64,000 bases of DNA, from contig CM097885.1 in assembly GCA_044892525.1 (NCBI GenBank), forward strand, positions 34,844,001 through 34,908,000, written 5' to 3'. Under the pieces are notes generated by a model, which searched no databases, was not told where the DNA came from, and saw nothing but the letters and a program-made list of their open reading frames with translations. The first letter of the stretch is position 1; every line of letters starts with the position of its first letter. Positions 36,207-60,240 of this stretch are shown here, piece by piece. Both the position numbers and the translations under genes were made by a program. The DNA is from Schmidtea polychroa. Lineage: Eukaryota.

Positions 36207-36341
36207 CGTATACCCCTGATGATGTTTCACGTTGGTGCGTATACGTAGGTGGGAATCTGTGGACAGGTGAGCCTCTATGTTAAGACTACTCGCCACAGTA
36301 TTCTCGGTACGGGTTCCTAGGTGCCAATAGAAGGACTTAAC
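36207..36341 (+). ncRNA. Candidate structured RNA module, copy M3
   Basis: CGTATAC/GTATACG around CC-CTGA..TCAC-GTTGGTGC; CTGTGG/CCACAG around AGGTGAG...GACTACT; GCCAATAGAAGGACTTA. Confidence 0.6.
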
Positions 36342-36713
36342 ATTTTACTCATTACCTCGTCTCTGGTCCAAGAAGACGGTATTCAAATTTCTCTGTTCAA
36401 GGGATTTTGATTTGAGCAATCTCATTTCGGTCAATCACACTATTTCACAATCTCATATTTCAGCATTTCCACATTTTTAAATATATTTTCATATAAGGAT
36501 CTATTGACTACGTCGAGGGAGGTTATACTACAAAACAGACAAGAAATCATCCGACACTCAAAGTTTTATTACGAATACACGATCGAAATTACATTAGACA
36601 TCAATAAGAAAAATAACAATCCGGTTGTCAATATCTACAATGTTCTATATTTACATATGAATTAACGAGATATTTCTAATATTTTGTCGTGCGCTTCCAT
36701 CCGAGACATTTCT

Positions 36714-37444
36714 TCACATGGTTTCTACCTCAAATAGTAGTGCATCCATGTTGACCTGCAACCAAGGATCTTTTGGAGGGGTCGTTACAGTTGACGAGAT
36801 TATTCGAAACGAATCCGATGCCGATACTGATGAAGGGTTGGCGCCAGATTGTGCAATTGCAGATTTTGCGACAAATAGTGATGCCTCCAGTTCATTCACC
36901 TTTTCCCTCATTTTTGCTGTTCTTTCTGCTCGAGAAGGTCGCTTTCGTTTTTTCGGCCGTAGAATCGGCGCGGAAGATACTTGCGCGGATGAAGAACCAG
37001 TGGTGACTGTTCCGATTAAAATAGGATCAACTAATTTTGGTACAACCGGTCCATACCCTGCACAAAGAGATAGCGTTGCACTATTTAGTTCATCCGCTAA
37101 ATTGTGAAGCCGAAATACGTTCACGCCATCCTTGATTGGATATTCTCGGATTCTTCTTTGCAACTCAGACTCGGTATATATTTTATGTAGAGCCTCGGAT
37201 TGAGCTTTAATACTTAGTCACTGTCCACGGCTTTCTTCCAGGAGACTGTCACGACAGTGCTCCAACCTGAGAATCTTCATTTTTTCCTCCTTCATTTGTG
37301 GCGGGGAGTACCACGTAGCTTCCAGCGTTTCGACACGTTTTTTAGAGCCCCAATGTACTCATGTAATTTTCGTATGTCTTCGTTCTTATCGGAGCACGAG
37401 AAACACGGTCTCGGCCCTTTTGGTGGAAGATTCGGTTCCGACAT
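36714..37444 (-). pseudogene. LTR-borne antisense ORF, copy 1 (one frameshift, one stop)
   Basis: MSEPNLPPKGPRPCFSCSDKNEDIRKLHEYIGALK/KRVETLEATWYSPPQMKEEKMKILRLEHCRDSLLEESRGQ*LSIKAQSEALHKIY...KKRKRPSRAERTAKMREKVNELEASL...NMDALLFEVETM. Confidence 0.85.
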
Positions 37445-38228
37445 ATCTAGAAGATAAAAGCTATTGATAATTCGTTACTCTTTACGTCTCAACATTGCTC
37501 CGACATCGTAACTGGTTTCGGAAATTTTCATGTTCTCGGGCACCCACAAAATGAATCGAAAATTTATTTCTCTATTGGGGTACTTGACCCTAAACGCACA
37601 TTCGCAACTAGTTTAATGCCGGGAAGAGGCTTGATGAAAATGACAAGTGAAAAATTTTTAACTCGTATAAATAGGCAAACTTTAATTGGATACACCTTTT
37701 AGTTATGTTTCATTACATTATTACTACAATAATTCTCAGGGTTGGAAGTTATGATTAATGAAGAATGTTAGCCGCAACAACGTCGAATTCATTTTCAATC
37801 TCCATAATTAATAAATTAACCAAATAAAATTACTAAATTAATTTTATTCACAAAACTGCGCTTTTTTGTAATATTCAAATAACCTGTTCGAGGCTTTTTT
37901 ATTATTTTAATGTTGATGCTGATTTCAATGCTGGTTTAATTTATTTTAATATTTAATATATTTTTATATTTTAAACTTACTTTAATTTATTAATTTAAAT
38001 ATTTATACAAAAATTTATGTAATCTGATAAATACAATTTAAATGTTTATTAGCAATATTCAGTTTTAACTTAAACGTGAATTCTATCCTTTCATCCCCCT
38101 TCTTTAAATTCTTTAATCTTTTCAATATTCCTGATTAAAGACTTCCCACTTTTATCTCTCAGCATATAACTGCGATCGTGTATTCGTTTTGTTACCGTGT
38201 ATGGTCCTTGATATCTATCTTGATCCTG

Positions 38229-38641
38229 GTGACCCGTCAAAATAGCCCAAGACAAAATAGCCCCGTCAAAATAGCCCCGTCAAAATAGCCCCATCATAAA
38301 TAGTATATAGTAGTATATAATGAGGGGTGGCTAAAACCCCAAAAATTTTAAAGTTCACATTTTCAAGATGGCCGTCCCACCTCATCATTCGTAGTGGAGG
38401 TTCTGCGTTATTGTATGTAAAATCGACCATGACATTTTAATTAAATTCTCCGTCTTACTATTGACATATGCTCGGCTACTCCGTAAACGAGTCGCGCTGG
38501 CTGTGGTACATCGTGGTACCTCCACTACGAATGATGAGGTGGGACGGCCATCTTGAAAATGTGAACTTTAAAATTTTTGGGGTTTTAGCCACCCCTCATT
38601 ATATACTACTATATACTATTTATGATGGGGCTATTTTGACG
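38229..38641. mobile_element. MULE-like foldback element inserted in the gypsy integrase
   Basis: Perfect 124-bp inverted repeat 38278-38401 / 38518-38641 with tandem GTCAAAATAGCCCC terminal motifs. The right end is truncated and adjacent integrase sequence is deleted. Confidence 0.8.
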
Positions 38642-39840
38642 ATGCATTAAGTAAATCTCTTATTGTCCGGAATTGTCTTTCGATTATACCATTCGTATTA
38701 TGATAGTATGGGCTCGAATACACTATCTCGAACCCTGCATTTTTGCTTATAAACTTTATGCTATTAGCTTCGAATGTTTTCCCGCAATCTACATGTAGTT
38801 CTCTGGGTGCCCCAAATTTAAGAATCCAGTTGTTTAACAATATCTTCCCAATTGTCTCTTCATCCTGTTTATTTATTGCTGTTAACGAGATGTATTTGCT
38901 GTAATGGTCGATTATTGCGCAAATGTATCTTTTCCTGTTAAATGTTTCTTTCATTGGGCCACATATGTCCATATATATTTTCTCAAAGGGTTCGGATGCT
39001 TCAAGTACTTTTGGTTTCTCTTTCATCTTTGTAGTTACAACTTTAACTTTTTGGCACGATTCACAATTTGATATTGTCGTTTTACCTCCTTTATTAGATC
39101 TCTCATATCAAAATTGTTTTGTATGTATTTGATAACTTTGTCAACTCCAGCATGGCACAGTAATAGATGTGTTTTGATAATCATTTCTCTTCTTTTGCTT
39201 TCTGGTATCCATATTCTTTTATATTTGGTATAAATAATATTATCCTCTATTATAAACCTTCCACTCGTTTGCGTTATTTTATTTTTAATCTCCTCTATTT
39301 CATCACTATTCATTTGCCATTCCTCTCCTTTGTCTTCAGTTATTATATTTAACAATCTGGTTTTCATTATTCCCATTTTAGGATTATCGTTTTCCATAAG
39401 GCATTGTACACATATGCCACACGTTTTCATCGATAACATGTCTGCATTAGTAATACTAATTTAGTATGTAGTGTACCCTTTCTAAATTCCATTTTTATAT
39501 CAAGGCTACTTAAATGGTTTATCCAGCTCTGGAATTGAGCTGTAATTGGCTTCTTCGTGGTTAGCATAAATGTTGTTGCTTTATGATCTGTACGTAGTGT
39601 AAATCTTTTTCCATATAAATAGTGATTGAAATGCCGACAAAAATAATATATAGCCAGGAGTTCCTTTCTTGTAATACAATAGCCTCTTTCGTGGTCATTC
39701 ATCGCATGTGAGCCATATGCGATAACTTGCTCATGCTGGGCACCTGGAAGGACGGTTAATGATTAATGCGACTAGGGTTTATCGTGGTGATTCATTTGTC
39801 CCAGATGCCAAAATGATTTGTCGACCAGATATTCCCTCCT

Positions 39841-39972
39841 GTGTGCCCATGACTACGAGTCATATTGGTGCTGTACACCGAGGTCGGAACCTGTGAGCAG
39901 GTGAGCCCTGTCGCCAAAACTACTCCTCACAGCATTCGCGGTTCGGGTTCGGAAGGCCGTAGAAGGACTTAC
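39841..39972 (+). ncRNA. Candidate structured RNA module, copy M4
   Basis: GTGTGC/GTACAC around CC-ATGA..TCAT-ATTGGTGCT; CTGTGAG/CTCACAG around AGGTGAG...AACTACT; GCCGTAGAAGGACTTAC. Confidence 0.6.
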
Positions 39973-40219
39973 ATCACTAGAAAAGCCGCCTAGGTCGTTA
40001 TATCTTGTTACTTACAGTGTCAAATTCAACATTCCAACAACTAGTAAAAACGAAGTAAAATATAATTTCCAAACACAACATGAATTAATAATTAAATAAA
40101 CACAAGGTCCATAAAGGAGTCACATTGAATTACAGAAAATATACATATTGTCTGCCATGAGGTGGGCGTGATATTACTGGGAGGATTGTGATGAGAAGTT
40201 ACTGGAAGCTGGCTACTTC

Positions 40220-40963
40220 CTAGATCATCTCTCCTTCCGCTAACATCGCATCGATGTCGCACTCCAAAGCAGGATTGAAAGGTGGTTGAGAGGTGGAGAC
40301 AGGCACAACTTTGGCAGGAGCGATGATCTTAGTCGCTGGTGTTTCCTTCGCCTGAGTGGCCGCAAATAATGTCGCCTCGAGGGCTGCCATCTCTTCTCGG
40401 CGTTTCTTTGTTTTCTCGGCCCGTGTTAGCCGTTTCTTCCGTTTCGGTTTCTCCGGTAAAATGACTGGCTGCGACGTTGATGGGTTCGATGAAGTGGTGA
40501 CTGGCAGTACAGTAGTTGACTTAGTAGCCGCAATGATGTCGGTGAGAGCTGGGGAGACTGGAGTTGGGCCGTGGGCGCCGCAAAACGGATGCTGATTGGG
40601 TTTGGGAGTAGGTAGATCATGATGTATAGGGAAGAGATTTCCTTTGTCTAAAATTGGATATTCGGCTACTCTCGCCTTTAGTTCGGCGTCGGAGTAGATA
40701 CGATGGAGGGCAGCCGACTGTGCCTTAATGGTGAGTCTTTGACTCAGATTTTCTTGTAACAAGCTGTCTCGGCAATTTTTGAGACGGAGAATCTTCATGC
40801 GCGCCTCCTTCATACTGGCAGGGGTAAACCATGTCCCCTCCAGCGTGTCGATCTTTCGTTTTAACGACCCAATATAATCAGCTGAATTCTTCAGAAGGGC
40901 ATTTTTGTCGGCACACGAGAAGCACGGTCTCGGGCCGGTTGGAGGAAGGCTTGGTCCAGTCAT
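40220..40963 (-). CDS. LTR-borne antisense ORF, copy 2 (intact, 247 aa, unknown family)
   Basis: PCFSCADKN, coiled coil, LEGTWFTP, CRDSLL, Pro/Ser/Thr linker, basic KPKRKKRLTRAEKTKKRREEMAALEATL, acidic end DIDAMLAEGEMI. Conserved in three other copies. Confidence 0.85.
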   Translation of the reverse strand: MTGPSLPPTGPRPCFSCADKNALLKNSADYIGSLKRKIDTLEGTWFTPASMKEARMKILRLKNCRDSLLQENLSQRLTIKAQSAALHRIYSDAELKARVAEYPILDKGNLFPIHHDLPTPKPNQHPFCGAHGPTPVSPALTDIIAATKSTTVLPVTTSSNPSTSQPVILPEKPKRKKRLTRAEKTKKRREEMAALEATLFAATQAKETPATKIIAPAKVVPVSTSQPPFNPALECDIDAMLAEGEMI

Positions 40964-43900
40964 TTGTTATAGTCAAGTTTACTGAAAGAAATATATGTTT
41001 ACTTCAATTAAAATCTCTTATTTTAAGAAGCGGGTCTTTTCCATTTCATTCCCCGTGAATTCACTACTACACGCATCCTCCACATACATCATACTTTATT
41101 CATTCAAATATATGATCCATACACGCAAAATTATTAGCGTTTAGTCGCCTCTATTTGAGCAAAAAGGGGTGGCGGGGCTCCGATCGTGAAAGCACAAAAA
41201 AATCAATTATTTGCCCCATAAAATCAATTTATTAAAAATTAAACAAGAAAAATTGTAATAGGATTATTTATGTATCGATTCTTTCGCAACTCGTCCGTTC
41301 CATAGTATTTGTTAGAAATGTAACTAATGTCTTTTGCCCATTTATCCTACCCGCAAGAGCTCACCCTAATTCAGTCTAAACCTTGTGAATGCAATTTATT
41401 TGTTCGTAATTGATTTTCAAAAATTTTAATCATTTTATTTAACTACAAACCCGTTAAATTTAATTACGACGTTTACTGGAACGGTATGCAGAGATCTGCT
41501 GTTAATTCAGAATAGCGTAACTCTTGATAACACCGAAAAACAAAATCCGATTAGTGCCCATACTGCTGAATAGTAATTACTGCCGAAAAACTCTCATGAA
41601 GGAAGCTTATCAGACGTGAAGCGCGAGAATTGGAGATAAAGGCTTGCTGCTTATCTATTTATCTGTGTGAATCGTAACATTCGGAACGAGTATGACGGGA
41701 AATTCACAAATCGACAACAGTGAAAATATTGGTGGACTATCGCTTATTCAGATTATTTTAATGTATTCTAATAAGCCAGCTATTGTTTCTCATCTAGTTT
41801 GTGCATATCCTTCTTGCAGTGACGTTTCAGTTGATTGACATCTACATCCATCGGAAAAATCTACTTCGGACAAATTTAACACCTATCTCTCTTATTCCAG
41901 AGTTGTACCAAGATACTAAGGTAAAAGGAGACTCATTTACTAACTGGAAATAAATACTTCAATACGCCACTATTAAGCTGGTTTTTCGTTCAGATCCGAG
42001 AGATCATTTAACAGAGTTCCGTTACCGAGTTGGAGCATGAAGTGGTGATTATATAATAACACTCTACTTCCTTCTACTGGGATCAATCATCAATGCGAAC
42101 ATCGACAAATTCCGGACGTCCTCCCAGCTAATCAATCCCCGAAATCATATGCATAAATTACTATAATAATGAGAATCTAAATATCTTCGTGTCGAAAATC
42201 AAACAACCAACATTTCGTAGAATTCAAAATAATTTATTTTCATATATTCACATCTTTCTACATTGGGTTCAATATTGATATAAATCGTTGCACATTCTTC
42301 AGGTTCAATACTCCCTTCATTACGAATTTCATAAATACATCATTCTACAGCTACTCAACTTCCTGAAACCACATTTAATTGTTGTCGAAAAAATAAGAAC
42401 ATTATTACTACTTAAATTACAGTTTAAAATAGGATAATATTTACCATAGCATTCAAAATTATTTACGTAATAGCATTACAAAATCAAAATAATCTCTTAC
42501 ATTTCCTTTAGATTTCGATGCTGGCGAATAGAATAACTGGTTCGGCTGATGATGCTATTGAATAAATTTTAAAACTATTAAATTGATGATTTAGCTTACC
42601 TATTGATTAAATTTTAAAACTATAAACTAACTGTTCCGCTTTTCTTATATATTAAATTCCGACCAATCAGAATTCAACGCGGTTGTAATATTTTAATTTT
42701 ATTGGTTTTCCCTTTTTTTATTCTTCTTTTATTTTCTATTGTTTTTTGGTGGTTTTATTATTAATTTATTTTTTATTCTTAATTTCCTTTCGTTCGTCGA
42801 TTTTTAAGTAATTTTTCGTATTTTTATTGATTTTTTCTTAATTCTTATGGTTATTTTTAGGTTTATTGTTTTTATCCTGATTTCCTGTGCTAGCTTTTTT
42901 ATTATTTTTTTTTCTATTTTGTTAGGTAATTATTTTTATTAATTTCCTAGTTTCTCTTTCTCTGGGGTAGTTCCCCCCTCTATTTTCTGCTAATTATAAA
43001 TTTAAGTATTATTATTTATTTTGGATCATCAGCCCAACACTCATATCCCATGTCATTCTTCTGTGATAAAACTGCGCCGATTGTATCGAAACTTGCGTCC
43101 GTATCCAGTATGAATTCTTTCTTAAAATCTGGAAATACCAAAATCGGTGCGGTTATTAATGCCAACTTCATAATCTCAAAAGCCTGCTCACAATTTTCAT
43201 TCCATATTATTTTGTCGCTATTTTTACCACATATACTCTCTAAAGCTCTTGTCTTCTTTACGTATTCTTTAATAAATTTTCGATAATAGTTGCAAATACT
43301 CAAGAAACTCCTTAAATTTTTCACATATTTCGGCCTTTGAAATGATTGAATAGCTTCAATTTTGCTCTGATCTGTTTGGATGCCGTCTCTATTTATAATA
43401 TGGCCTAAGAATTTCACTTCGCTTTTCAGTATTTGACATTTTTCAGGAATAATTCTTATTTTCTGCAATACTCTTTCCAGCAGTTTATAGTGTTCTTCAA
43501 TTGTGTTAGTAAAAATTAATAAATCGTCCAGATAAACCATTACCGCGTCTTTCCATAAATCCCTTAATATCTTCGTCATGCGCTCTTGAAAAGTTCCTGG
43601 TGCTGCCGCGATGCCAATTTTATGTTGAATTAAATCAGTGCATCCAACATCCCACTTGTCAGCCATGAAAACACATTTATTTCTCTTGATAATTTCTACA
43701 AGCAATTTATCTTTTACTTTCAACTTCTCTATCGCATGTTGGAATCTTTCTTCATTTGTAATATTCCTCCCAAATTTAGCATCAATTTCACATATACGTT
43801 CGTTAGATATCATTTCACCTTCTTGAAATCATCTTAATTCAATACCGAATTGTTTCTGTAATTCTATACCCCCAATAACATCTGGGACAATGTTTTGTAC

Positions 43901-45096
43901 GACGGTAAAGGTCACTATTTTTGTTAGCTTCTCTATCTTTACCTCAATTTGAACTTTTCCTATAGTCTCCAATTTACTGTCATTTGCACACTTTAGCATT
44001 TCATCTGTTTTTATAATCTCGACTTTGTCCAATTTATCCAGTACTGCTTTAGACATTACATTAACTCGTGCTCCTGTATCTAACAGACACTCGATTCCGC
44101 GCCCTTGAATTTTAAGTGTTATACTTGGTCTACCTTGCATTTTATGATAAGTCATACGAGGTCCTTTCCATTCGTCTTTCGTAAATATATTTTGTTCCAC
44201 TTTGTTCTTTATACTATTGGAGATTTCATTAATCCACCCAATCTTATCTTCATTCATATCAAATGACTTCTTAGAAAACTATATACTTTTTCTCCTGTTC
44301 TTTCATCGCTACACATTATTTTGCTGTTTTCATTTCTATGATCTATACTGCTACTTTTATAAACATTAAAATTAGTTTTATCATCCATATTATTACATAA
44401 ATCTTTACTAAAAAAATTAAAATTATCTACACTATTCAAATTATTTACATTATTCAAATTATTTACATTATAAAAATTATTTACATTATTATAACCAGCA
44501 TTTTCATGAAAATCATCATTACCTAATAAATGGCTCCTATCATCGCCTCCTGTGATGGAGCTTCCTCGTTTGGGTATTGCATTTCGACGTATTTTTCCTT
44601 GGCTTCACTTGAATAATCCAGTTGATAGTTACCATCTTGATTTCCAATTGCTGCTACCTCTCTTCTGTTATACTGATTGTTCTGTTGAAATCGGCCCCCT
44701 TTATTTCGGTGTGTTGCATTAGTTCTTCCGTAATGATTCATTTTTGGCATAAATCTTTCTAGGTTTGTATAACATTTAGTTTCTTTGTGACCTTGTAGAT
44801 GACATCTCCTACACTGAATGTTTGGACATTCTCGGCGTACGTGTCCATATAATCCACATCCAAAACACTGAATCCTCCTCTTCATAGTACATTCTTGGCT
44901 TAAATGGCCTGGTTTTTGGCATGTCAGGCATACGACGTTCTTAGTCGCTTCCGGTGGTTTTGATATTGGTGCTGGGGTACTACCCGGTTGACTCAAACGA
45001 CTTTTAAGTCCCGTCTAGAGGATGATCGTCTGTTATACTAACGTCTTCCATTTTTCCGTCAACCTCGAGTAGAACTCCACACGATCTACACTCCAA

Positions 45097-45237
45097 CATA
45101 ATACCCATGAACTGCTTCATGTTGGTACTGTATTATGCCGGCGAGACACCAGAAAACAGGTGAGCCCCTGCCTTAGGACTACTCCTTTCTGAGGGCTCGA
45201 CTTCTCTTTCCCCATGACTGCCTATAGAAGGTCTTAC
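45097..45237 (+). ncRNA. Candidate structured RNA module, copy M5
   Basis: CATAATAC/GTATTATG around CC-ATGA..TCAT-GTTGGTACT; CAGAAA/TTTCTG around AGGTGAG...GGACTACT; GCCTATAGAAGGTCTTAC. Confidence 0.6.
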
Positions 45238-45517
45238 GTCTCACTACTTCTCTATACTCGATACTCCATCGTTTCCTGAGTTCGGTACCCGTTATATACT
45301 ATTTGAAGATTTCAGTCAATAAAACCATTCCTTCCTGGTGGTGGAGAAAAAAGCAAATAACAACACACAAAACAAAACCCAATGATTTAAACAAAATTTA
45401 TTTACTAAATGGTCAATATACAAGAAAACATAGATACTACAAGCAAAACAGTTCATCACATCAGAAAAAGTCGCAAGAGTTAGGACTAGAAACTTCAGCC
45501 TGCACAAGAGGAACTGG

Positions 45518-46271
45518 TCACTTTTCCCATTCCGTTTCCGTTAATAATGCATCTAGATCGAAAAATTCGGACGCATTCTCCTCCCACGTGATGCCAGCCG
45601 CAGAGATAATACGCCCCGGAATTCCGGTGTTCACACTAGGGGTGGGAGCAACACTACCTCCCGATGATTCAACAACTGAGACTCGCTTCTTCTCTTTCTC
45701 TACAATTCTTTCCTTTTGCTTTCGTTTCTGTTCGGCTCGGGATAACTGTCGCCGTTTGGGCTTGGAAGAGGAACTGATAAGGGGGGGGGGGCGGTGCATT
45801 AGATGTGGAAGCAATTTTTGGATTTACTTTGCTGGTGCCCGTAAAGATTACGTCTTTGGGTTTGGGCGAGAGCTCCGCCTCCACACAACCTCGGCATGAT
45901 TTCTCCGATGTTCGAGGTCTATTTGGAGTCCGATCGTGATGAGTAGGGAACACATTGTCCTCCTCAGTGATCGGTATGCTCGCGATCTTTCGAGTTGTTG
46001 CGGCTTGCAAGTATACCTTATGTAGAGCCATTGATTGCTCTTTGATAAGGATACGTTGTGATCTACTTTCTGCGATCAGGCTATCGTGGCAGTGTTCGCT
46101 TCTATTCAACTTCTTCACTTCTTTCATCTGCACTGGGCTAAACCATGTGCCTTCTAATTCGTCGATCTTGCGTTTCAGCAGTCCGATTTGGGCTTGCAGT
46201 CCCTTGATGGCCTCATTCTTATCTGCACACGAATAACAAGGCTTAAGGGAATTCTTGGTGACTGGGTTCAT
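45518..46271 (-). CDS. LTR-borne antisense ORF, copy 3 (one frameshift in a G11 run at 45781-45791, possibly a sequencing error)
   Basis: PCYSCADKN...LKRKIDELEGTWFSPVQMKE...CHDSL; after the shift, KPKRRQLSRAEQKRKQKE...FFDLDALLTETEWEK. Confidence 0.8.
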
Positions 46272-48871
46272 GATCGTTAGCTATAAAAGAAAACAGATAT
46301 AGGGAGTGATTATCTATAATCCACTTCATCTGTAAGCAGATCGTACATAAAAATAAACATTAGCCATCGTACGGCCCATTTGATGCACCTATAAAGTTTG
46401 CGCAATCAGAAAGACGACACTGTACCGACAAGAGAAACTCAACCCCAGACGATCTATTAGACTAGCGCAATTTTGTATTTATGGTAAAAGGTACAATTCT
46501 ATGGCATCACACCCATATTTATCTGGATTCTTTACCCGAAATTTGAAGTACACCTGAACAATTATTGGGATTTACTATTATTACCATCCGATAGTGGATA
46601 GGTACTTATTAAGATTATTAAACAACAAAATAAAATATATAGGAAGGTAAATTAAATCAATCCTTATTTATTCCTATCCCAGATCATCAAGTAACAAACA
46701 TTTTAATTCAAAAGTAAATAAATTCATTTATTCTTAATGTGAAATTTCAATTATTTCTATCTGTAACGGGTTTTTAGTCTGTATGTTGGTAAAGATAATA
46801 GTTTATGAATCTACAATTGGTACTCAGCTGCTTGTTGTACATGCACTCGGTAGGGACTATGGTGTTTGTGACATGAGGGTGGAATCGAAATTAAAATAAA
46901 CAGAAAACAGTGTTTATCTAGCCTGCTGATAAAATAGTGGTGGTTCTCAGGCACTACCGGATGATCTATTCATTATCTCGATTTGTATTTTTCATGTGGC
47001 TATTCAAACGGATCGATTCTTGTCATTCGGTACTCATCAGACGGCATAGGTGGTGTTACCCCATCCGTTTAGACTAGGTTATGTATATCATAATAAAAAG
47101 TCACCATGTTACCTGTGTTTTTGCTCGCTCTACGTGCTTTCCTCATGGAGTATTTTCGCATCTTACCGACATGCAAGTTTTATAGTGGAACGGTCAACTA
47201 TCATAAAATCATAGAAATTATCGGTGCCTATGGTGACTATGCGACTGATTAATAGATATTAGTAGATTGTTCAATGTATTTTCGCAGCATGCTGTTCCTA
47301 GTGCGTGTATCGACTCAATTGGAATTATTCAAAAGGAAACTCGCTACTCGTAGAATCACGTTCGGGCTACTCGATGATCAGTCCTAACTTACAATGTTCT
47401 AAATACTATCAACAGGTAGGAAAATGGATCACTTTCGCGAGTGAATTTAATTTTGCGTTTTGTTGACCCAGAATAAAATGTACATAATCGTTTTTCGTGT
47501 CTATTTTCGAGTATCTGTATCGTAAAGAGGTGCTGAAAAATGGACTCATGCTAATTTAAATTATCTGAGGAGAATATGAACGGTGAGACAGATCTTATAG
47601 AGTTATGATGAATTGGAGAAGATTGAAATAAATTTGATTTTTGTGTGATGATACTAGCGTGAGTGCTGAAAATTAGATGAGATTCACATTGTACTGCTAC
47701 TTATGAGGATATCCTAAATCAAATGTCGCTCGACGAAATCTACTTTCGGATTAGTAAGTGGTTTTAAAATATAGTTCACCCTAGCTGAGATTTTGTGCTT
47801 TTAAATATGTGATGGGATGAATAAGGTAAAGTGACGAATTTCGCGCGAAAATTTCAAATGTAGAGCTAGTCCAAGATCGGTTAAGGAACATTTAATCACG
47901 ATAGTGTGCGACACCCTCAATCACTGTGTAGACCTACTCATGGCACTTCCTGCCTCCTTTATTCCGATAATGCTGTCTCTTTCCTACTACTCTACATTGA
48001 CCTTATTTTTCAATAGTATCTCCCGCTAATTTATGCGCATCTTCAGCGACGGACCCGTGAGGAAGCCCCCACATTTCGGCCCGAATCAGCTGCGTGACTG
48101 AAATGCTCCGTACCCACCGGCTGAGCACCCGAAGGCTCCTCACACCATGGTATGAAACATTTCAGCTCCAAGTTACTCAGTAATTTTCATTAAAACAAAA
48201 CATAAAAACTCGCATCAAAATGGCTATTAATAATTCCGTCATAAAAATAAATATTTAATTACATCGAGTGAAAAAGAAGAAATGTTTTCAAATTTTTAAT
48301 TTTACATCCAAATATATTTACAAATAATTACTGTCATAAATTACCAAATCATACCAAATTATAATGAAAAAACAAAATTTTACCAATATATCCGTTCAAA
48401 TATTTCCTGGTAGGTAAAAATCTGAGTCTGAAGTTTGGTTAAGATAGTTAAATAATCTTCGAATGATTTGCGGGCTGAATCGATTTCCTCTGTTTCTCCT
48501 AGATTATCCTGATAGCTAATATGTTCGAATGCTAAAGCTGAATCGTTGTTTGATTGACACTAGTTAGTTATTTTGTTAACACTGAATAGTCGTATGGGTG
48601 AATCCATGGGGGGGGTTTCAGAAAACATATTTTGTATATGTATTTTTATTTTTTCACGTAATAGCTAGCACTATTTACCAAATTATATTTCACTTTATTT
48701 CAATATAAAAACAATTACCTATAGGTATATTTTTCTCTCAACTTTTTTATAGAAAATTGTAAAGAAAACTAAATAAAAATTTATTAAGAAATATGAATAA
48801 TAATTATACATTATAAGAAAAATTAATATAAAAGTTTTATTAGAAAAAAAGTAATATAAATAAATAAATAC

Positions 48872-50294: not shown

Positions 50295-50297
<3 letters not shown>

Positions 50298-51371
50298 TGG
50301 CCTGCCGAACTTTGATTTGAACTTCGATTCGGACCAAAGTTCAAACACTTCGGACTTCGGCAATAGACCCTGTACGATCCAAATAGTGAAATTTTGCTTG
50401 AGCGATAATAAATTATTATTGTTCCGTGATTATTTACATTAAAATTAATGGCGACACGCAAACAGTGAAAGTAAATAAAATCTTAGTTGTTGTTCATTTT
50501 TCTTTACTATCGATTTTCCTTTCTACGGCTATGTCATACGAACACTGACAAGTCTAGCCTAGCCGTGGCTGTGTCGCTGTGTACACAATAGCCGTTCATG
50601 TTCATGCATCTCTATTCTCTACACTATAGCAGCCCTATACGTCAATCTCCGACTATTCTTAGCATAATCTCGATTGATTCGAGCCACGATATCGGGGGGC
50701 AGGCGCTTGAATAGGCATGGCTTGCGAGGCTGAGGCTACTGTAATACCACAATCAATTACCGATCGCAATCTAATAGGCCTAATAATAAATTTACTCTTT
50801 CCGAAATTTATTGCTTGGGCACTATTAGACTTGACTACTGTCAAGAGAGAAATATCACATAATCTACACATTTAAATTAATGTTGAGCACATTTAAATTT
50901 ATTATGTCATCTATCGTCTCTGTATGTCGACTCTCCAATCTTATTGCATGCCTGATGGAAGCAGCACAAGATGCCACGCGCGTGTATGCAGTTCAACCGA
51001 GTGCATATGTCAATGTCATGCACGATGATGTTCGTATACCGTACCTATCGACTTTATCGACAATAATACTTATTATAAAATTATATAGAAATAATTGTGT
51101 CATTTTTCTGTCATAAAATTGTGTGTCATAAATGAATGATTTATTCATTAGGTAAAATATTAGACTGAGCAGAACTGCCAGTTGAGCATCCGATTCACTT
51201 TCCACATCATCACATGCGAAAATCTCCATAGCTCCATACCCCTCCCCAGTGTACTGTTGGTGTATGAAGGGGGGAAGGAAATTTTCTTAGTCAGGCACAC
51301 GATCTCATGCATTAGACTCAGACTTATCCCAACATACATCACATGACTTCGTTAATATTCCCTCATGCGAG

Positions 51372-51500
51372 CCCGTGGTGATGTTTCCACGTTGGTTCTG
51401 CCCACACGGGTTGGAGTTGGTTAATAGGTGAGCCCCTACCTTAGGACTACTATTAACCCCCTCGCGGTACAGGTTCTAAGGTGCCTTAGAAGGACTTACC
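51372..51500 (+). ncRNA. Candidate structured RNA module, copy M6
   Basis: CC-GTGG..CCAC-GTTGGTTCT; GGTTAATAG/CTATTAACC around GTGAG...GGACTA; GCCTTAGAAGGACTTACC. Confidence 0.6.
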
Positions 51501-51760
51501 CTCAATCTCATACATCCTCGGGTCGACCCTGGTCCAAATGGACGACCTTCATACAATGCCAAACATTTAGTTCATCAATCGAATCGGGTGTTTCACTCAT
51601 CGTTCACGTAAAATAACTCATTAAACATCGAATAATTATATTAATTTTACAACACACATTACACAATCACTAAAGATAAAATGAGAAGTTGTCATATTCT
51701 AGAGAGGTGGTTGCGAATACCTCCGACAAGGTAGATCAACACTGTCGTCACCTCGCGTCA

Positions 51761-52498
51761 TTAAAAGACTTCTCTGTCCACTGGCAGGCGACGGTCCGCG
51801 AGATACTTGATGTCCTCGGCCGGTACGATTCGAAATATTTCTTTGGCCGGAATCACATGGGAACTAGAAATCTCTTTGAGGGTGGACTGGGCCACTGATA
51901 GTGAAGCTTCCAGCGCTGCCATCGCATCCCTGCGCTTCTGATTCTTGGCGGCCCTGGTTGGCCGTTTCTTTTTGCGAGAAGGTATCGGATTATTTGTGAT
52001 GGACGCGGCAGAGGGTGCCGCCAGGACTGGAGCCAAGATAGGGTCGGAAGAGCCACCTACTAAGGGTTGTTGATCGGATAATACCGGAGCTGGGATGGGC
52101 GGCAGATAGGAGCCATGCCCTTGACAGTTTGATGCAGACGCTTGAGACGTCTGGTGGTGTAGTGGAAATGCATTAGTACTATCAAAAACGGGAAATTCCG
52201 GAACTCGTTTGGCCAATTCGGCCTCCGTGTAGACCTTGTGGAGGGCTTCAGATTGCGCTTTAATTGTCAGTCGTTGACAACGGCTCTCCTCCAGCAGGCT
52301 GTCCCTGCAATGCTCCAACCGGAGGATCTTCTTTCGCTCCTCCTTCATCTGTGGCGGAGAGAACCACGTGCCCTCGTAGAGGTCAATACGCTTCTTCAGA
52401 GCCCCAATATATAGATGTAATTGGGCAATATCCGCGTTCTTGTCTGCGCAAGAAAAACACGGGCGAAGCTCCTTGTTAGTGTTGGACGATGTAGACAT
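51761..52498 (-). CDS. LTR-borne antisense ORF, copy 4 (245 aa, open; C-terminus divergent)
   Basis: PCFSCADKNADIAQLHLYIGALKKRIDLYEGTWFSPPQMKEERKKILRLEHCRDSLLEESRCQRLTIKAQSEALHKVY...RKKKRPTRAAKNQKRRDAMAALEASL. Confidence 0.85.
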   Translation of the reverse strand: MSTSSNTNKELRPCFSCADKNADIAQLHLYIGALKKRIDLYEGTWFSPPQMKEERKKILRLEHCRDSLLEESRCQRLTIKAQSEALHKVYTEAELAKRVPEFPVFDSTNAFPLHHQTSQASASNCQGHGSYLPPIPAPVLSDQQPLVGGSSDPILAPVLAAPSAASITNNPIPSRKKKRPTRAAKNQKRRDAMAALEASLSVAQSTLKEISSSHVIPAKEIFRIVPAEDIKYLADRRLPVDREVF

Positions 52499-55400
52499 CT
52501 AAAGATTGAATAATTTTCATGTTCATCCGTAATATTCGTTTATGTGACATTTACAATAGGGATACGGGCGTTGTAATTTTATCAATCATCCTACCCGGTG
52601 ATGCCCCGAAAATCTTTACCATTCATCTGTGCTCACATTCATTTAATCATCAACATTCAATTTAATTCACCCAACCCATGCAACTTGAAGAAAAGAAAAC
52701 GGGGAATTCTCAAAAAGGAACTCACTGGGTATGAACTCAACCTTTAGATTTACTTTCGGATTGGACAATTCCAATCTACTATACGTTTATGCATTCAGTA
52801 CGGTCAATTCTATCCCCTTTATTATTTGTCGCAATTTTGATAATTAAAATCTCGTTACTATGTTTTGTGAATTTGTGCGTATGTAATACTTATAAAATTA
52901 TAATTTCATGTCACTGGCGTCTACCCGTGTCATATTAATTACGATTAAAGTTATAAAAAAGACTGAAATATATATTAACTAAAATCATGTTATAAATTAT
53001 GTTTAATTATTTTAAATCTTTCACTGTAAGTGTTGTCATGGAGACGCCTACTCGTATGTAGTTATGTATTGTTCTTATTTTCTATGCATGCTGATATTCG
53101 TCATTATATCTGTTGAGGTGCATGTGTTATTTAATTTGTTATCAGCCTGTGCCGGTGTAATATCTAATGATTCTGTTATTTTAACTGAAGACATCAAATT
53201 CTTTACTCCTACATGCAGTCTCACCAATTCAAAGATAGTCCAGGTTGTTGTGTCATTGTATGTACTGTGTTCCACTAGGTGAGGTGTACGTGTGTTGTTG
53301 TGAATGGTGATCGATAAATATGACGTGGTGTTTGGACGTTTCAGTAGCTTAACTTCAATCGACGTCACCGAAAATTTGCTGCTCTAACTGCAGATTAATT
53401 TATATGTTGTCTGGTGGAAATTTATCTAGTGCGCACACATGTATTTATACTCTCAAGTCAAAACATTTGGAATCCCTGCAGGTTTCCCCAGAAAATCAGT
53501 AATATTAGACGAAACAGGGAGAGAAAATTGATCGTAACGAGTACGGGGTCAGTTATGAGTCTACTTGATTCTACAATCAGATTCCCTTCTATCATGTTAG
53601 TTCAAGATAACAACTGTCAATTCGTTCGCTTCGCGACATCTACCAGAAACCGATACTCAAGATCTCTTATCAAACTATTATCGACTATTTACTACGCCTG
53701 ACTCTAAACTGGCTGAGATTGACCGACGATTTCGCGATATCTCCGACGACTGTTTCTTTTAGACTCGTGGTAAGTGTTTTGATAATTTATCACGAAATGT
53801 TTACTTTACTGACAGGCGAAACGGTTTTCGCTGATTACGGTGAATCAAGAGCGACAAGTTATCCTAAAAGTGCATCGATGATGAATCTGACTGCTAATGC
53901 CCTGGCGATACAAATCCTGGAAATCTTCAATTCTTATGACAATTAATACGAGTCTTGTTGGAATCTTTACGAAAAATAAAACTCCCTATTAACGGATGTT
54001 TAAACAACTGCTGTTCGAAAACGTAAGCAATGGTCCGTGCCAACTCTAAGCTCAATAGGATGCAATTGGATATATGGCAGAAATGATTACCAATTGGAAA
54101 ATTTTCCTGGGATCCTCGGTGGGTTCATTATTGGCATTAAATTTTGTGACTGCGAATTTTCGATGGATAGGATCTCTACGACGACAATTATAATTGATCT
54201 CACCCGATGAAGAATTTTTCTCAACGCATCTATACCTCTCGCTAGATGTCCTCACCCCTCCTGACCCACCTAAGAGCGGCAATCATCGCTGCCACCGCCC
54301 TTAGACCGCCAGGAGGGACGATTCTATCTCCTCAATCATTACAAACTTGTATTCATAAAAATTTATTATAAAGTTGACTGATATGATTAAATAAATGTTT
54401 ACATTCGTTGCAAAATTATTTACTATATAAAAGGTTACTTGCCTGGCGACCACGCCGTCTGAGTCTCAAATATGATGCCGTTTCAACATAATCGCAAGCG
54501 CTTAACCATTTAAATTTGTAGTAATACTGACTTTATCCAGATTCTCAATATCGCTTCTAATAGCCATTCTCGTAGCTTCTCCAGATTTATTTAAATTTTC
54601 CGCATCATATTGGATTCTCAGACGACATCGTCGCCAGCACCATAGAGAGAGAAATACCTTTGGAAATGCAAATAAGTTTATTAAAATTAAAATATTTCAA
54701 CCATTATACGTATATATTACAATCATAAAAATTCATTCGTCTTACTGTGAATTAGTTGAAAATCGGGTTCAAGTTTCCTGTTAATTGGTATTTTCTCCTT
54801 AAGTAATTCGATTCCCTGTCGTAAATAGTCTGCTGCTAATTGTCGATCCTGTGTAAGTGTCTTCCTGTTATATTCGGTGCTTGGTATAATTTAGAATTGA
54901 GTGTCTGCAAAAGTGGTTCCTGTAGAGCAACGATTAAAAGTGGTGGTGACAAATAAATTTTTTACCTGTAGAGCAACGATTAAAAGTGGTACTCTACAGA
55001 TTTTTCTCTTTCGTTATATATTATTCTTCGTCCAATCAGGACTCGAATTGTGTGTAATATTATTATTTATTATTGTTTTTATGTTTTTTAATGTATTATA
55101 CTAGATTTTTATGACTTCTTTTATTTTTATTATTGTTTTATTTATTTTCCTATTTTTTCTTATTTTTCTCCTGTTTTTTCCTGTGAATTCATGGTTATTT
55201 GGTGATAGTATAATTTTTTGTTTTAATTATTCCAAGTGTTTATTTGAAAATGGCTTTATTTCTATTTATTTCTTGTTTATTTTCCTTAATTTCTGTTATT
55301 CCCTTTTTATTGTTATGTATGTTAGGTAACTTTCCTTTTCTATCTTATTTTTCATCTTATAAATTTCATTGTATTATTAGTTATTTTTATTTCCTTTATA

Positions 55401-55795
55401 ATCTTATTTCTTTTATTGTTTTTCCCAATTTAGTAATTCTTATAGTTTTTCCGCGATTTTTATGAAATTTATTTTTCCTGTTTATTTATCCCTAACCCGA
55501 TTTTCAACATTCTCAAAATTTAGCCCAACAAATCACTCCGGGGCCCGTTAAAATTGCGTCCCGCAATTTACATAATATCATACACTCCGATCATACCTTC
55601 TCGGTATTACACATAACTCACATTCAAAATTCACACAAACACAAAACTAAAATTAACTAAAAAATACTTTAATTAAACAGATCAAGGACAAATATAAGTA
55701 AGCAGTAGCCACTTAAGGTGACCGGTTTCATCATGTACACAATAAAACATCAATAATTTGTCAATAGTTATAGTTCGGAATGTTATGCTTGGTGT

Positions 55796-56458
55796 TCAGT
55801 TTGCTGTTGATGATGGTTGATTGGGTTGTTGGGGTTCGAAGTTGTAATACATTCGACAACTTGTGGACGGTCTGATTGTTTCTGCGATGGAGGTTCGTTG
55901 TCGGAAATTTCCTTGGATTACGTCAGCCATATTAGCTTCTTGGGATCTTCTAGAGGATCTTTCCGGTACGGGGTGACTTTTCTTCCAAACTTTGTAGATA
56001 TTATAGATTTTTAGGAGAGTGATTACCATGATTACGGTGGTTTCGGCGATTACCACGTAGAGGAGTTCATAGTTGTCATTTGTTCCGTTGGGGTTTTTTA
56101 CTTGTTCGACTGGGTTTTGCATTTCTTGATGTTGGATTTGCTGTTCTAATTGATCAAGTTGGTGAATTTGGTCCAGAATTCTTCTATCGATGATTTTATA
56201 CATAGGGTTGTGGTTACACGTGATTCGAATGTTGTTGATGTAATTTCGGGTTGCTCGAAGGTTATTGATGAGATTGGTTTTTATTGCATTTGGGTAAGCG
56301 CATGATGGGTTTATTGGTACGATTTTTTGATTGGGTTTTCTGTTGTCTCGAACCCGTTCGATTTGGGTTTTCACGGGTTGTCGCCTTGTCAGATCGAGAA
56401 TTATCATCATCATCAGCGTTGCTATGATCGGTTGGCTTCTCATGATACTGGTATACAT
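55796..56458 (-). CDS. Intronless predicted type I membrane protein (220 aa), unknown family
   Basis: N-terminal hydrophobic PIIATLMMMIIL, two Cys, a heptad LDQIHQLDQLEQQI, TM LLYVVIAETTVIMVITLLKI, then a basic-flanked tail. Confidence 0.6.
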   Translation of the reverse strand: MYTSIMRSQPIIATLMMMIILDLTRRQPVKTQIERVRDNRKPNQKIVPINPSCAYPNAIKTNLINNLRATRNYINNIRITCNHNPMYKIIDRRILDQIHQLDQLEQQIQHQEMQNPVEQVKNPNGTNDNYELLYVVIAETTVIMVITLLKIYNIYKVWKKSHPVPERSSRRSQEANMADVIQGNFRQRTSIAETIRPSTSCRMYYNFEPQQPNQPSSTAN

Positions 56459-56502
56459 TAATTATTTTATACACATTTATATACATCGGTTTTTTGTTGG
56501 CT

Positions 56503-57228
56503 TTAATTTTGTCGTTTCTTTTTAGGGGCTTTCTCTCGGATTCGCATTAATTTAGACTCTGCTTTCATGACCCTATGCCGGAGTTCCGGCAACATTTCTA
56601 GCTGCCTATCTTTCTCCTGGGCCTTGTCTGTCAAGTGTCTTATCTCTCTTTTCAAGGTTTTTATCTCCTTCTTCTTCTCTTTCAGGTTCCGTTCCAGCTC
56701 CAATTGTAGGAAATCATTTTCCTCTGGGTCGTTTGTCTTTGAGTTTTGTTTCTGCCGTTTTGTTTCTATTTCTCGATATTTATTGTTCCATTTTTCCATT
56801 TCTGCGTTTTCCTGTACTTTTACTTCCAGCTGGTTTTCTAGTTCCCTGATAGTTTCCTGTCGTTTCCTCGCTTCCATCTTCCAGTAATCTTCGATCACTT
56901 CGTTTGCCTTGAGACTGGCTCTTTCCTGCCATAATTCTTCCGCGATCTTCTCCCAATTTCTCCCTCGCTTTCTTTGATCGTGAAGCCATTCGTTTTCCTC
57001 CTCTACCTCTTTCTTTACTTCTTCTAACAAGGTATATTCTTTTTTCAATACTTTAATCATTTTTCGATTATCTCTCCATCTTTCCACTAATCTTTCGTTT
57101 TCTTGTCTCTCCTCTTGTAATTCTTCCTTGATAGTTTTCTTCCTCTCCACTTCTTCTAGTTCAATTTCTCCCTCTTCTAGCTCGATTATAGATGTTATGA
57201 TGGGTCGTCCGTTTTCAGTGTTTATTTT
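56503..57228 (-). CDS. Intronless coiled-coil protein; no ATG, frame opens at a TAG acceptor
   Basis: The Glu/Lys/Arg-rich heptad ORF (track 56503-57150, GTG start) extends in frame to 57228, immediately after TATATTATAG. Confidence 0.6.
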   Translation of the reverse strand, partial: KINTENGRPIITSIIELEEGEIELEEVERKKTIKEELQEERQENERLVERWRDNRKMIKVLKKEYTLLEEVKKEVEEENEWLHDQRKRGRNWEKIAEELWQERASLKANEVIEDYWKMEARKRQETIRELENQLEVKVQENAEMEKWNNKYREIETKRQKQNSKTNDPEENDFLQLELERNLKEKKKEIKTLKREIRHLTDKAQEKDRQLEMLPELRHRVMKAESKLMRIREKAPKKKRQN

Positions 57229-57399
57229 CTATAATATATACATAATTAATAATTGCGCTATAGTGCGGCTTATACGTATACATCTATATGTAATTATATA
57301 ATCGGGGTTACAGTCCCGTAAATATTTTTATCGTACTATTAATTTTTTTGTTGGGATACAGGTCCCGATTTTTATATTTTTTATCTTTTCCATTTATCT

Positions 57400-58437
57400 T
57401 TATACAAAGGTCTCTTCCTGGCCTACATACCCTTCATCGCTTTCTATTGACGTTTGTAGTTGGATTGCGATGGGATCGAATGGGATGTAGTACCGGGGAA
57501 TCTGCGCTCTAAGCTCCTGAACTTCGTCTCTTAGCGCTCTTGACACGTTGAGTTCCTCGTCCATCAGGTATGTTAGATACCTGGTTTCGTCGTCCCTTAC
57601 CTCGATCTGTTTTTCTAACTCTTCCGCTTTTTCGCCGTTCTCCCATTTTTTGATTTCCTTTTCGAGGTTCTTGATATTTTCGTCATACATCTTCCTCTCG
57701 TTTTCCAATTTTTTATTCTTTCCGGCTATCACTATGTTCCGTTGTTCTAGTGCCCCCTTGTAGCCGTTATTGTCTCTTTCAAGGTCTGCCACCTTATTTA
57801 CGAGTTCAACGATTCTACCTGACTGTTGCAGGATCATCTCTTCCATGGCGGTATTCTCCTGTTCCTTCATAGACAGTTTCATGGCCAGATGCCTTTCAAA
57901 TTCCATGGCCTTGGTCTGCCAGGTTTGACTTCTAGCGGCGATTTTTCGGAGCCTTCTTAGCTCTTCTCTCTGATCCAGGTTTTCTTCCCATTTTCCTTGT
58001 TCACTTTCGTATTCCAATTTCTGAGGTAGTTCTTTCATTTCCTTTTTGATTTCTCGATGTTCTCGTTTCCACTTTCTGGCTTCTGCTAATAGTTGACGGT
58101 TTTTCCTCTCCTCTTTTTGTTTTTCTACCTCTCGTTTTTGTTTCTCGTCTGTCAGTCTTTTTCTCGATTCTTGTACCAATTGTTTTAGGTAGTGACCGTG
58201 AGCTTCCTGTCTAGTGCTCTCTAATGCTGACCACTTGGCGGCTCTTTTACATGCCTCTGCCTCTGCTCGTAAATTTTGCACCAACCACTGGAATTGGTGG
58301 TTTTCCCATTCTCTTGCTTCTTCAAGATAGTTTCGTGTCTGATTTGATAGTTGCGCCATCACTTTAGCCCATCTTTCTCTGTGTACTCTATTGATTTTTA
58401 TTTCGTTGTTTGGGGCTTCAGTTCGTTCTTGTGTCAT
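57400..58437 (-). CDS. Intronless coiled-coil protein (345 aa), unknown family
   Basis: Long open heptad-rich ORF with purine-rich coding strand; GTTATTCAG acceptor 6 nt before the ATG. Confidence 0.7.
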   Translation of the reverse strand: MTQERTEAPNNEIKINRVHRERWAKVMAQLSNQTRNYLEEAREWENHQFQWLVQNLRAEAEACKRAAKWSALESTRQEAHGHYLKQLVQESRKRLTDEKQKREVEKQKEERKNRQLLAEARKWKREHREIKKEMKELPQKLEYESEQGKWEENLDQREELRRLRKIAARSQTWQTKAMEFERHLAMKLSMKEQENTAMEEMILQQSGRIVELVNKVADLERDNNGYKGALEQRNIVIAGKNKKLENERKMYDENIKNLEKEIKKWENGEKAEELEKQIEVRDDETRYLTYLMDEELNVSRALRDEVQELRAQIPRYYIPFDPIAIQLQTSIESDEGYVGQEETFV

Positions 58438-58657
58438 CTTTGTCTGAATAACGATATTATCAATTCAACGTCGCACATTTATATTTGTTCTATTATTTAT
58501 TTATTGTTACAATTTGGTATAGGTGGGTTGTTTTAGAAGTTTTCCGCTTAAGTTTACCTTTAGTGGATTTGGGGGTTTTTCTACACTACTATATAATATT
58601 TTACTGGATATATACGCCGATATTTACAATTTAGTATATACAAAATTATTCGTCTCG

Positions 58658-59727
58658 CTACTCAGTCCTACTCTTCCCGTCTCGCCTCACCGCTATTTTT
58701 ATGTATATAGTGTCGTTTCTTGTCATATCTTCTACTTTCCGCTGTAGGATGAAATTCGGTGCTCCGGTTGCTGATCCTTCTTCTTCCAATGGCCTCTGAT
58801 AACATACGAGGTTTCCCGCTGTATGGAAACTCTGTTCATGTATACTTTGATGGTTCATCATTGCGAGGTCTATTTTTGCTTTAAACGGCCATTCTATTAA
58901 CTCGTCGTATAGCCCTTTGCACATCAAGAAGAATACTGAGAAATGTGTTCCGTATGCGCTTCCATCCCCGTTGGGATATGCTTTCATTTTCATTTTATAC
59001 CCGTTTTTCCATGAGTAGAATGCTGGACTTAGTAATGTTGTATCCTTTCCATTTCTCGCTCTCTGCATTTTCTCTTGTACTCCCGTTATTTTCCATATGT
59101 ATGGAGCCGTTGGTATTAGTTCGTTGAGGTTCACTTCGCTTACTTTTTGATGTAGTTCCTTCACCATATTGTTGCTAGTTTCCACTAGATCTGTCTGTAT
59201 CTTTGTACTTGTTCTTGCCTCTTCGAATGCTTCTTTCTCCTGCAGTAACTCCTTTACCAACGCTTTTAGCGAGATTATTTCTTTTTCTAAGTTCTCGGTT
59301 TTCCTCTCGTTTTCTTGTAATACCGTTGACCACATTTCCGCGTGTGTTGATACGTTCTCTGCTAGATGTTGGCGTAATTCTCCTCGGTGTAATTGTTTTT
59401 GGCATCCCAATTTCCTAATACACACGTTATCTTTTTCTTTCGACATTCTCTTAGATGTTGAGCGAGTTTTATTACTCCGGATTCATCTCATTTGTTAGGA
59501 CATTCACCTCTGAACTCTGTGCATACTTTTTCCTCTTGTAAATTGTGATGTTGACTAATTAATTTTCTTCGGGTATCGGTCTCTCCGCAATATTCACATT
59601 TTTCCAGCCTTTCTACGCATCGACTTTGATGCTCTTCCTCTTCATTTGCTTTAATCGTTTCCTGGCAACGATCGCAAACCAATAACCAATTATAACCAAA
59701 TTTATTGGTTTTATTATAACCAATGAT
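58658..59727 (-). pseudogene. Intronless RING-less TRAF (TRAF zinc fingers, coiled coil, MATH) with one stop and one frameshift in the zinc-finger part; 58658-59446 remains open
   Basis: CDRC..HQSRC..CEYC; CPNK*...LAQHLREC..ITC/LGC..LRQHL; MATH YIWKITG...LLSPAFYSWKNGYKMKMKAYPNGDGSAYGTHFSVFFLMCKGLYDELIEWPF...GAPNFI. Confidence 0.9.
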
Positions 59728-60105
59728 CTGAAAATGATCTGAAAATGATCTAGATGTGATTTAACAATGATCCTGACATGATTCGACGATGATAGGATTT
59801 GACTATCATTGTGATTTGATGCCGATATTATATATTACTTTGATATTATTCGAGTATAACAATTTGATTAAATTTTGTGTGGACCCACCGTGGTCTTCTT
59901 TCTCTTCTTCTTTAAACCTTTTTCTAGCATGTAGCGTATCAGTAGAAACGTTTTATGTATGTGGGTATTGAGGTCACAACCCTGTAGCTCGTGGACCCAA
60001 TTACATGTAGGCACTTGTTATACAGTGTGGTGGGTTACTGATGATCAAATATCTTGCTCTTTAGTGCTGTTGCCAGCGTAACCCAAGATACAACATTGTT
60101 TACCG

Positions 60106-60240
60106 CTTGATACCCGTTGAATGATCAACGTTGGTACTGTATCAAGAGGGTGAGTGCTCGCAAAAAGTGAGCGCACTACTTGCACTGTAATTGTCGAGCA
60201 CTCTACTGGGTTCACGGACTGCCGATAGAAGGCTTGTGTC
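60106..60240 (+). ncRNA. Candidate structured RNA module, copy M7 (subfamily B)
   Basis: CTTGATAC/GTATCAAG around CC-GTTGA..TCAAC-GTTGGTACT; GAGTGCTCG/CGAGCACTC and GCAA/TTGC around AAGTGAGCGCACTACT; GCC-GATAGAA-GGC. Confidence 0.6.

Follow-up and report, generated by a model that had tools for sequence, protein, structure and literature searches.

A conserved three-domain RNA fold at the 3' end of long terminal repeats of Burro-like giant elements in Schmidtea polychroa

Copies of the motif and their place in the LTR

We analysed a 64,000-nucleotide (nt) window of the Schmidtea polychroa genome (assembly GCA_044892525.1, contig CM097885.1, positions 34,844,001 to 34,908,000) that contains several large long terminal repeats (LTRs) of giant gypsy-like retroelements. 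An earlier inspection of the letters, hereafter the sequence-only reading, had proposed a structured RNA motif near the left end of each of these LTRs. A covariance model (CM) trained on 40 copies of the motif and then run over the window gave eight matches: seven lie on the minus strand, including a partial one, and the eighth is on the plus strand. The six copies named in the sequence-only reading and a seventh, decayed one are all present, align on three conserved blocks and are matched by the CM. All lie on the minus strand. Those of the A type occupy 36195–36348 (first given as 36207; LTR end at 36130), 39828–39980 (39841; LTR end at 39734) and 51354–51507 (51372; 117 bits, from a family of 29 distinct copies), and an A' type lies at 45086–45245 (45097; LTR end at 44970). 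The B types are found at 60095–60246 (60106; LTR end at 60028), in a young family that encodes only gag, and at 24319–24471 (24330), within an old LTR fragment. The decayed B-type copy at 32397–32498 keeps only domains 2 and 3 of the fold described below (partial match, 37.7 bits); it adjoins an exon of an RNase H2 subunit B-like host gene (31511–32215, plus strand; Pfam PF09468). The eighth copy, at 27385–27539 on the plus strand and thus in the opposite orientation, had been overlooked. The window's two ordinary small gypsy elements gave no CM match to the motif.

The motif is abundant genome-wide. A 13-letter core pattern had 6,506 matches in the 781-Mb genome compared with 119 for the reversed control, and a domain-1 pattern had 3,520 compared with 3. 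Among loci fetched later, 68 of 70 contained a CM match. Three loci (L277, L292 and L294) hold strongly diverged or decayed copies that retain the pentaloop and core blocks, possibly a further lineage.

The copies lie 77–127 nt inside the LTR end (ends at 36130, 39734, 44970, 51255 and 60028). What had been called the left end of the LTR is its 3' (unique 5', U5) end in the element's own orientation, as given by the direction of gag and by the primer site. The gag frame of the young 60106 family, with a Ty3 capsid and CCHC, runs opposite to the motif as first written. The LTR end closest to the motif is followed by a perfect 18-nt primer site, whose sequence is complementary to tRNA-Pro of this genome. 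LTRs of the A and A' types are followed by the same tRNA-Pro primer site. When 30 loci were picked solely by an LTR end and the primer site, the motif was at the same place in 29, although 6 of the 30 were also in the CM training set; in the remaining locus, unrelated sequence occupies its place. The distance from the pentaloop of domain 1 to the primer site was 213–266 nt in 14/14 loci examined. This places the motif at the 3' (U5) end of LTRs that belong to Burro-like giant gypsy elements primed by tRNA-Pro.

A covarying fold on the sense strand

Matches in the fetched loci (226, of which 158 are distinct) were grouped into 54 clusters. Ten representatives were dropped as mis-anchored or carrying deletions, and the other 44 were aligned on the conserved blocks. 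Covariation was scored by a G-test with average product correction against a null simulated on the tree, using our own R-scape-like script rather than R-scape. Significant covariation (E<0.05, two-set test) was found in 14 of the 42 predicted pairs, spread over all three domains. In the all-pairs test, only 3 predicted pairs reached E<0.05, and the top 14 of 6,903 column pairs by score were all predicted helix pairs, with no unpredicted pair prominent. RNAalifold run on a plain MAFFT alignment recovered domains 2 and 3 unaided, with compensatory changes in 18/22 pairs. In the copies fetched later (65 distinct rows, fitted to the CM and many from training families), 91% of cells pair compared with about 40% when the partners are slid, and 19/22 pairs change on both sides. 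The stems thus covary far above chance, as the sequence-only reading had anticipated, and the outer stems it named do pair in the copies. These results establish a conserved RNA fold of three domains that persists in at least three lineages.

Read on the sense strand, domain 1 consists of a 3–4 bp helix, an internal loop with RYAA facing one or two bases, a 2–3 bp helix and a loop of UUCUA plus one or two bases. In the 51372 copy this pentaloop, closed by CC/GG, lies at 51487–51491 (minus strand), and its first three nucleotides are invariant in 44/44 representatives. The loop is T-loop-like in its sequence pattern, a pentaloop U..A with one or two extra bases before the closing pair. A small hairpin with a 7-nt loop, previously placed between domain 2 and a conserved GCC, is not a shared helix; what the copies share is the CC/GG pairing that closes the TAGAA block. 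Domain 2 is a long irregular stem with a CAC-over-U internal loop and a small capping hairpin. Its core, GCUCAC (51428–51433, minus strand, in the same copy) opposite UAGU, forms a 3x1 internal loop beneath a covarying hairpin of 3–4 bp. Judged by its pattern, a 3-nt C-A-M strand opposite 0–2 bulged bases, this internal loop appears C-loop-like, and similar variants are among the C-loops listed in PMC4551918. Domain 3 is a 7–9 bp helix, an 8-nt bulge ending in CCAA opposite G, and a 5–6 bp helix; the conserved ACCAA of the bulge (51392–51396, minus strand) lies between the two covarying helices.

Conserved sequence extends to both sides of the three domains. Upstream, the block GGACCAG (51529–51535, minus strand) forms a hairpin loop in A types; the block is present in 18/20 A, 14/17 B and 2/7 A' representatives, its stem only in A (14/20). 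The rest of the putative U5 (51255–51353, minus strand) is a long hairpin that pairs the last bases of the LTR, in 26 of the 30 representatives with an LTR end found, and so ties up the LTR end beside the primer site. We also tried pseudoknots between the bulge CCAA and either the upstream loop UUGG or a downstream GG. These were rejected: the partners are invariant or family-specific and show no covariation.

The motif folds on the element's sense strand, that of the genomic RNA. In clusters with at least three distinct copies (n=13), the commonest pair state was G·U 37 times and A·C twice on this strand, while singleton departures, expected to be neutral, gave 34 G·U and 24 A·C. Mapped on the tree, 71 changes led to G·U and 30 to A·C. 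Folding z-scores averaged -2.7 for the sense and -0.7 for the antisense strand, and the sense value was lower in 13/14. Tetraloops read GNRA on the sense strand in 4/5 A and 5/7 A' cases. The sequence-only reading had taken G-U wobbles to favour the plus strand, which is the reverse of what both the family-level and the tree counts indicate. Its pseudoknot between GTGAG and CTTAC can form on the antisense strand only (25/26 A-type and 6/18 B-type representatives) and does not covary. With the strand corrected, this pseudoknot and the proposed switch hiding a splice site-like AG/GTGAG come to lie opposite the genomic RNA. RNA polymerase III boxes, a plus-strand splice switch and a plus-strand pseudoknot were discarded on the strand tests and the lack of covariation.

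The fold matches no catalogued family. A search of the window against Rfam at E<=1 gave one irrelevant weak match, and two young copies had no match at E<=10. A hammerhead core (CUGANGA plus GAAA) occurred in 2/44 representatives on the sense and 0/44 on the antisense strand; an HDV-like (hepatitis delta virus) nested double pseudoknot with P1.1 and the catalytic C in 5/44 sense and 3/44 antisense, at differing places; and hairpin-ribozyme loops in 0/44. That the motif has no hammerhead core and only an incomplete HDV-like resemblance, as first described, thus holds for the 44 representatives. Metagenome and viral contigs contained no match to a strict motif pattern. With looser patterns, one match came from metagenomes, none from prokaryote genomes and six from viral contigs, and all were judged to be chance; the best of them (27.9 bits) has no helices and falls within apparently protein-coding DNA, and the others score at most 8.1 bits. 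Titles and opening lines of abstracts on planarian, Schmidtea or Burro retroelements with RNA structure or ribozymes contain no description of the motif; the original Burro paper with its supplements and the Rous sarcoma virus (RSV) paper on the U5 inverted repeat (U5-IR) lie outside that survey and could describe part of it. Covariation, strand preference and the negative Rfam result support the proposal of a functional, structured cis-acting RNA without an Rfam family. We regard the motif as a genuine RNA family absent from the catalogues; it is most likely of the retroviral U5 leader kind, in a new and exceptionally elaborate variant.

The host elements

The motif copy at 51354–51507 belongs to a 4.28-kb LTR (51255–55531, minus strand) with TG...CA ends, the 3' LTR of a Burro-like element; solo copies of this LTR have 4-bp target duplications. 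The adjoining internal region (55532–59482, minus strand) contains coiled-coil open reading frames (ORFs) and, at 58658–59482, an ORF with a MATH domain. LTR pairs about 26 kb apart exist for these elements. Burro/GYPSM1 elements of planarians are giant and gypsy-like, with LTRs of 4–5 kb about 26 kb apart, a MATH domain and thousands of copies (PMC6431247). The elements studied here share with them the giant gypsy-like organization, multi-kilobase LTRs, a gag with CCHC and the MATH domain. Because LTR size and spacing, the MATH domain and the gypsy-like setting fit, we infer a Burro/GYPSM1-like host, assigned by these shared features and not by sequence identity to the named families. No RNA structure of the LTR is mentioned in the section on Burro/GYPSM1 in PMC6431247.

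The LTR at 51255–55531 also contains an ORF of 245 amino acids with a basic C-terminal stretch (51761–52498, minus strand), which lies upstream of the motif when read in the sense direction. It had no homologue at E<=0.001 among proteins of near length and no Pfam family. Related ORFs, with a conserved Cys-containing N-terminus and a basic tail, lie at 36714–37217, 40220–40966 and 45669–46280 (all on the minus strand). The young 16-kb B family has a gag-like frame and keeps the motif and primer site, with no reverse transcriptase or integrase match and no LTR ORF.

Several further features were noticed in and around these elements. No polypurine tract precedes the 3' LTR (window 55532–55600; L091:3445–3525); in its place, A and B families share a hairpin and a block containing GGGCCCC. 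The primer site begins 6–8 nt after the terminal CA of the LTR (L064, L191, L211–L240), a spacer longer than usual; pairing of this spacer with U5 is possible in the register of the end hairpin. The gene for the primer tRNA is hugely amplified: tRNA-Pro(UGG) genes form a 475-bp tandem array from C1:130.90 Mb (L185), with 1,555 pattern matches genome-wide. At C2:77.90–77.94 Mb (L069–L071), three B-type LTRs follow one another at 16-kb intervals, and the middle LTR has a primer site, as in tandem elements sharing an LTR.

In the window, a fragment of a mononegavirus-type fusion glycoprotein (35554–36009, plus strand; Pfam PF24664) is cut by the insertion of the LTR ending at 36130 and fits the env region reported for Burro. 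A hAT transposon at 60837–63213, with an open transposase frame of 670 amino acids, terminal inverted repeats and a target duplication, splits a very young B-type LTR. The same young B-type LTR carries, at L184:3800–4620 (plus strand), a broken, intron-containing copy of a host MANF/ARMET gene, antisense to gag (ARMET_C, E=4e-13). Three introns of 41–46 nt with GT..AG ends are skipped in contigs, which probably derive from reads of the host gene, and the capture of this gene with its introns suggests a DNA-level or antisense route. The GT..AG joints in the B-type LTR were also considered as splicing of the motif and set aside, since they belong to the host-gene copy.

A proposed leader platform and its alternatives

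We give roughly even chances to the reading that the motif is a 5'-leader platform that positions the primer tRNA and is recognized for packaging, like retroviral U5 structures. The motif stretch would be U5, downstream of the poly(A) site, and would therefore be present only once, at the 5' end of the full-length RNA. The T-loop-like, C-loop-like and bulge loops may dock into a compact tertiary fold. An unpaired GAACCC linker would pair with the T arm of the primer once its 3' 18 nt have annealed, a contact modelled on those proposed for avian U5-TΨC and for the primer activation signal (PAS) of human immunodeficiency virus (HIV) (PMC3185550). Finally, Gag or its nucleocapsid (NC) would bind the motif, as Gag binds the leader fold of Ty1 (PMC4974528). 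The linker can pair with the T arm over at least 6 nt in 20/20 A, 13/18 B and 0/6 A' representatives (33/44 overall), and the retention of motif and primer site in the gag-only family is as expected of a cis signal for mobilization in trans. Contigs from runs presumed to be RNA cover the motif, one of them entirely, and carry no strand or end information. Among the functions that the sequence-only reading had offered, a packaging or replication element fits best; a self-cleaving ribozyme fails every known definition tested, and a splice or poly(A) switch is weakened.

Known leader folds offer partial parallels. The retroviral U5 leaders (avian U5-IR/U5-TΨC, HIV-1 PAS/anti-PAS and the HIV-2 U5-T stem) share with the motif a sense-strand structure at the LTR 3' end, ahead of the primer site, and, with its A and most of its B copies, complementarity to the T arm of the primer on that arm's 5' strand (PMC3185550, PMC3601003). 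The motif, in contrast, is far larger, with three domains and an end hairpin over 250–330 nt, lies 210–270 nt from the primer site and is kept across otherwise unalignable LTR families; there is no sequence similarity, and one lineage lacks the T-arm match. Ty1 likewise has a compact fold in its 5' leader, a pseudoknot that reverse transcription requires and that Gag binds (PMC4974528). It joins R (the terminal repeat region) with gag sequence, whereas the planarian motif is confined to the LTR and showed no covarying pseudoknot. Stem I of the T-box holds a tRNA by a C-loop hinge and T-loops (PMC4919913); it needs two interdigitated T-loops and a specifier codon, whereas the motif shows one T-loop-like element and no Rfam match.

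Several observations weigh against the leader platform. The T-arm complementarity is absent from all six A' representatives despite the same primer and may go back to a single origin, and the invariant bulge is complementary to the tRNA in just 2/44. Counted in 50-nt bins 100–200 nt upstream, A(A/T)TAAA occurs in 11 and 15 of the 44 sense strands, barely more than the 7 and 11 of the antisense strands. Pairing between U5 and the spacer beats shuffles (p<=0.05) in only 5/18 loci, with two rows mis-cut. RNAalifold did not recover domain 1 from the MAFFT alignment, many folds of single sequences lack this domain, and a catalytic core would show equally dense invariant unpaired bases. Two antisense features are left unexplained: the B-type domain-3 loop reads GNRA on that strand in 14/17 copies, and the GTGAG pseudoknot can form only there.

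We weighed four other explanations. The two antisense features just mentioned, the second an invariant pairing of GUGAG with CUUAC, would fit a fold that acts in minus-strand strong-stop cDNA, as single-stranded DNA, or in an antisense transcript. Such an explanation, or stems that are protein-bound DNA palindromes, is very improbable given the G·U excess of 37:2 with its symmetric control, the sense-strand GNRA tetraloops of A and A' copies and, for palindromes, stem sequences that differ completely among families, which a sequence-reading DNA-binding protein would not allow. The fold might instead be a 3'-end or splicing switch, in which a GUAAG donor in the first loop recruits U1 or the fold masks poly(A) elements further downstream, which would let transcription run through the 5' LTR. 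HIV and foamy virus use U1-dependent suppression. On the sense strand, 22/26 A-type representatives have a donor-like GT site, and a poly(A) hexamer lies 100–190 nt upstream in many B and A' copies. With an LTR ORF upstream of the motif, R should be long and the 5' poly(A) site would have to be suppressed. We nevertheless consider the switch unlikely, because the GT is found in just 1/18 B-type representatives though the fold is retained; both LTRs also carry the identical sequence, and no GT..AG joint at the GUAAG site was among the joints listed, which come from contigs only. Just as doubtful is a nuclear-export or translation element for the unspliced genomic RNA, be it a Rev/Rex-type target of the basic LTR ORF, an element like the constitutive transport element (CTE) or part of an internal ribosome entry site (IRES). 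A-type LTRs do encode a basic protein just upstream of the motif, and gag lies 0.3–4 kb past the primer site, behind a long leader. However, the B family keeps the motif without the LTR ORF (though the ORF could act in trans), and the distance to gag varies tenfold while that to the primer site is nearly fixed.

The fourth explanation is a new self-cleaving ribozyme, made of twister-sister-like parts, that cuts read-through RNA in both LTRs to leave a unit-length, possibly circular genome. We consider it improbable, although the resemblance is closer than the sequence-only reading had thought: it is on the correct strand, and a T-loop separates GYAAG from GCUCA. The succession of RYAAR, the T-loop (two bases extruded) and GCUCA matches that of the 5' strand of internal loop L1, stem-loop SL4 and the 3' strand of L1 in twister-sister, and the A at twister-sister's extruded position is invariant (44/44); the L1 strands of B types frequently deviate at their first and last base. 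The order and identity of these short blocks are thus shared (PMC5660989, PMC7373991), whereas in the motif they sit in separate covarying hairpins. The twister-sister fold is incomplete, as had been noted. P1 can form in 15/44 and P2 in 8/44 representatives, the SL4 loop G-UGYRA-RY-C occurs in 0/44 on either strand, and a competing local helix forms in 43/44 and covaries, so the motif does not belong to that class. LTR-borne ribozymes have a precedent in the hammerheads of plant retrozymes, which also carry structured RNA in both LTRs of gypsy-related elements, including non-autonomous ones (PMC4918200). Here, by contrast, the motif has no hammerhead core (2/44), and the elements measure 16–30 kb, many of them coding. 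The lack of a canonical polypurine tract ahead of the 3' LTR would suit a ribozyme, but with a normal R region, cutting upstream of the primer site would sever the template. The absence of an Rfam match also speaks against it, as does, weakly, one contig spanning the entire motif from a run that contains spliced RNA, and the resemblance was spotted post hoc among many ribozyme classes and two strands. It is more improbable again that a new ribozyme class, put together from such parts through loop-loop docking, lies in the LTRs of giant coding retroelements and defines the ends of the genomic RNA, with a ribozyme-cut, possibly circular template replacing R-region strand transfer.

LTRs are seldom alignable between families, yet one tertiary-looking RNA fold has been kept here in at least three lineages and thousands of copies, and natural compensatory changes already yield a near-complete secondary structure. 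The motif is a candidate for a new Rfam family, which would also mark these LTRs in flatworm genomes. Should it prove to be self-cleaving, this would mean both a new class of ribozyme and a replication route new to LTR elements. As a leader platform, it would provide a compact, testable model of primer placement and of the packaging of a 16–30 kb genome in a giant gypsy element of an animal, a step hardly studied beyond retroviruses and the Ty elements of yeast.

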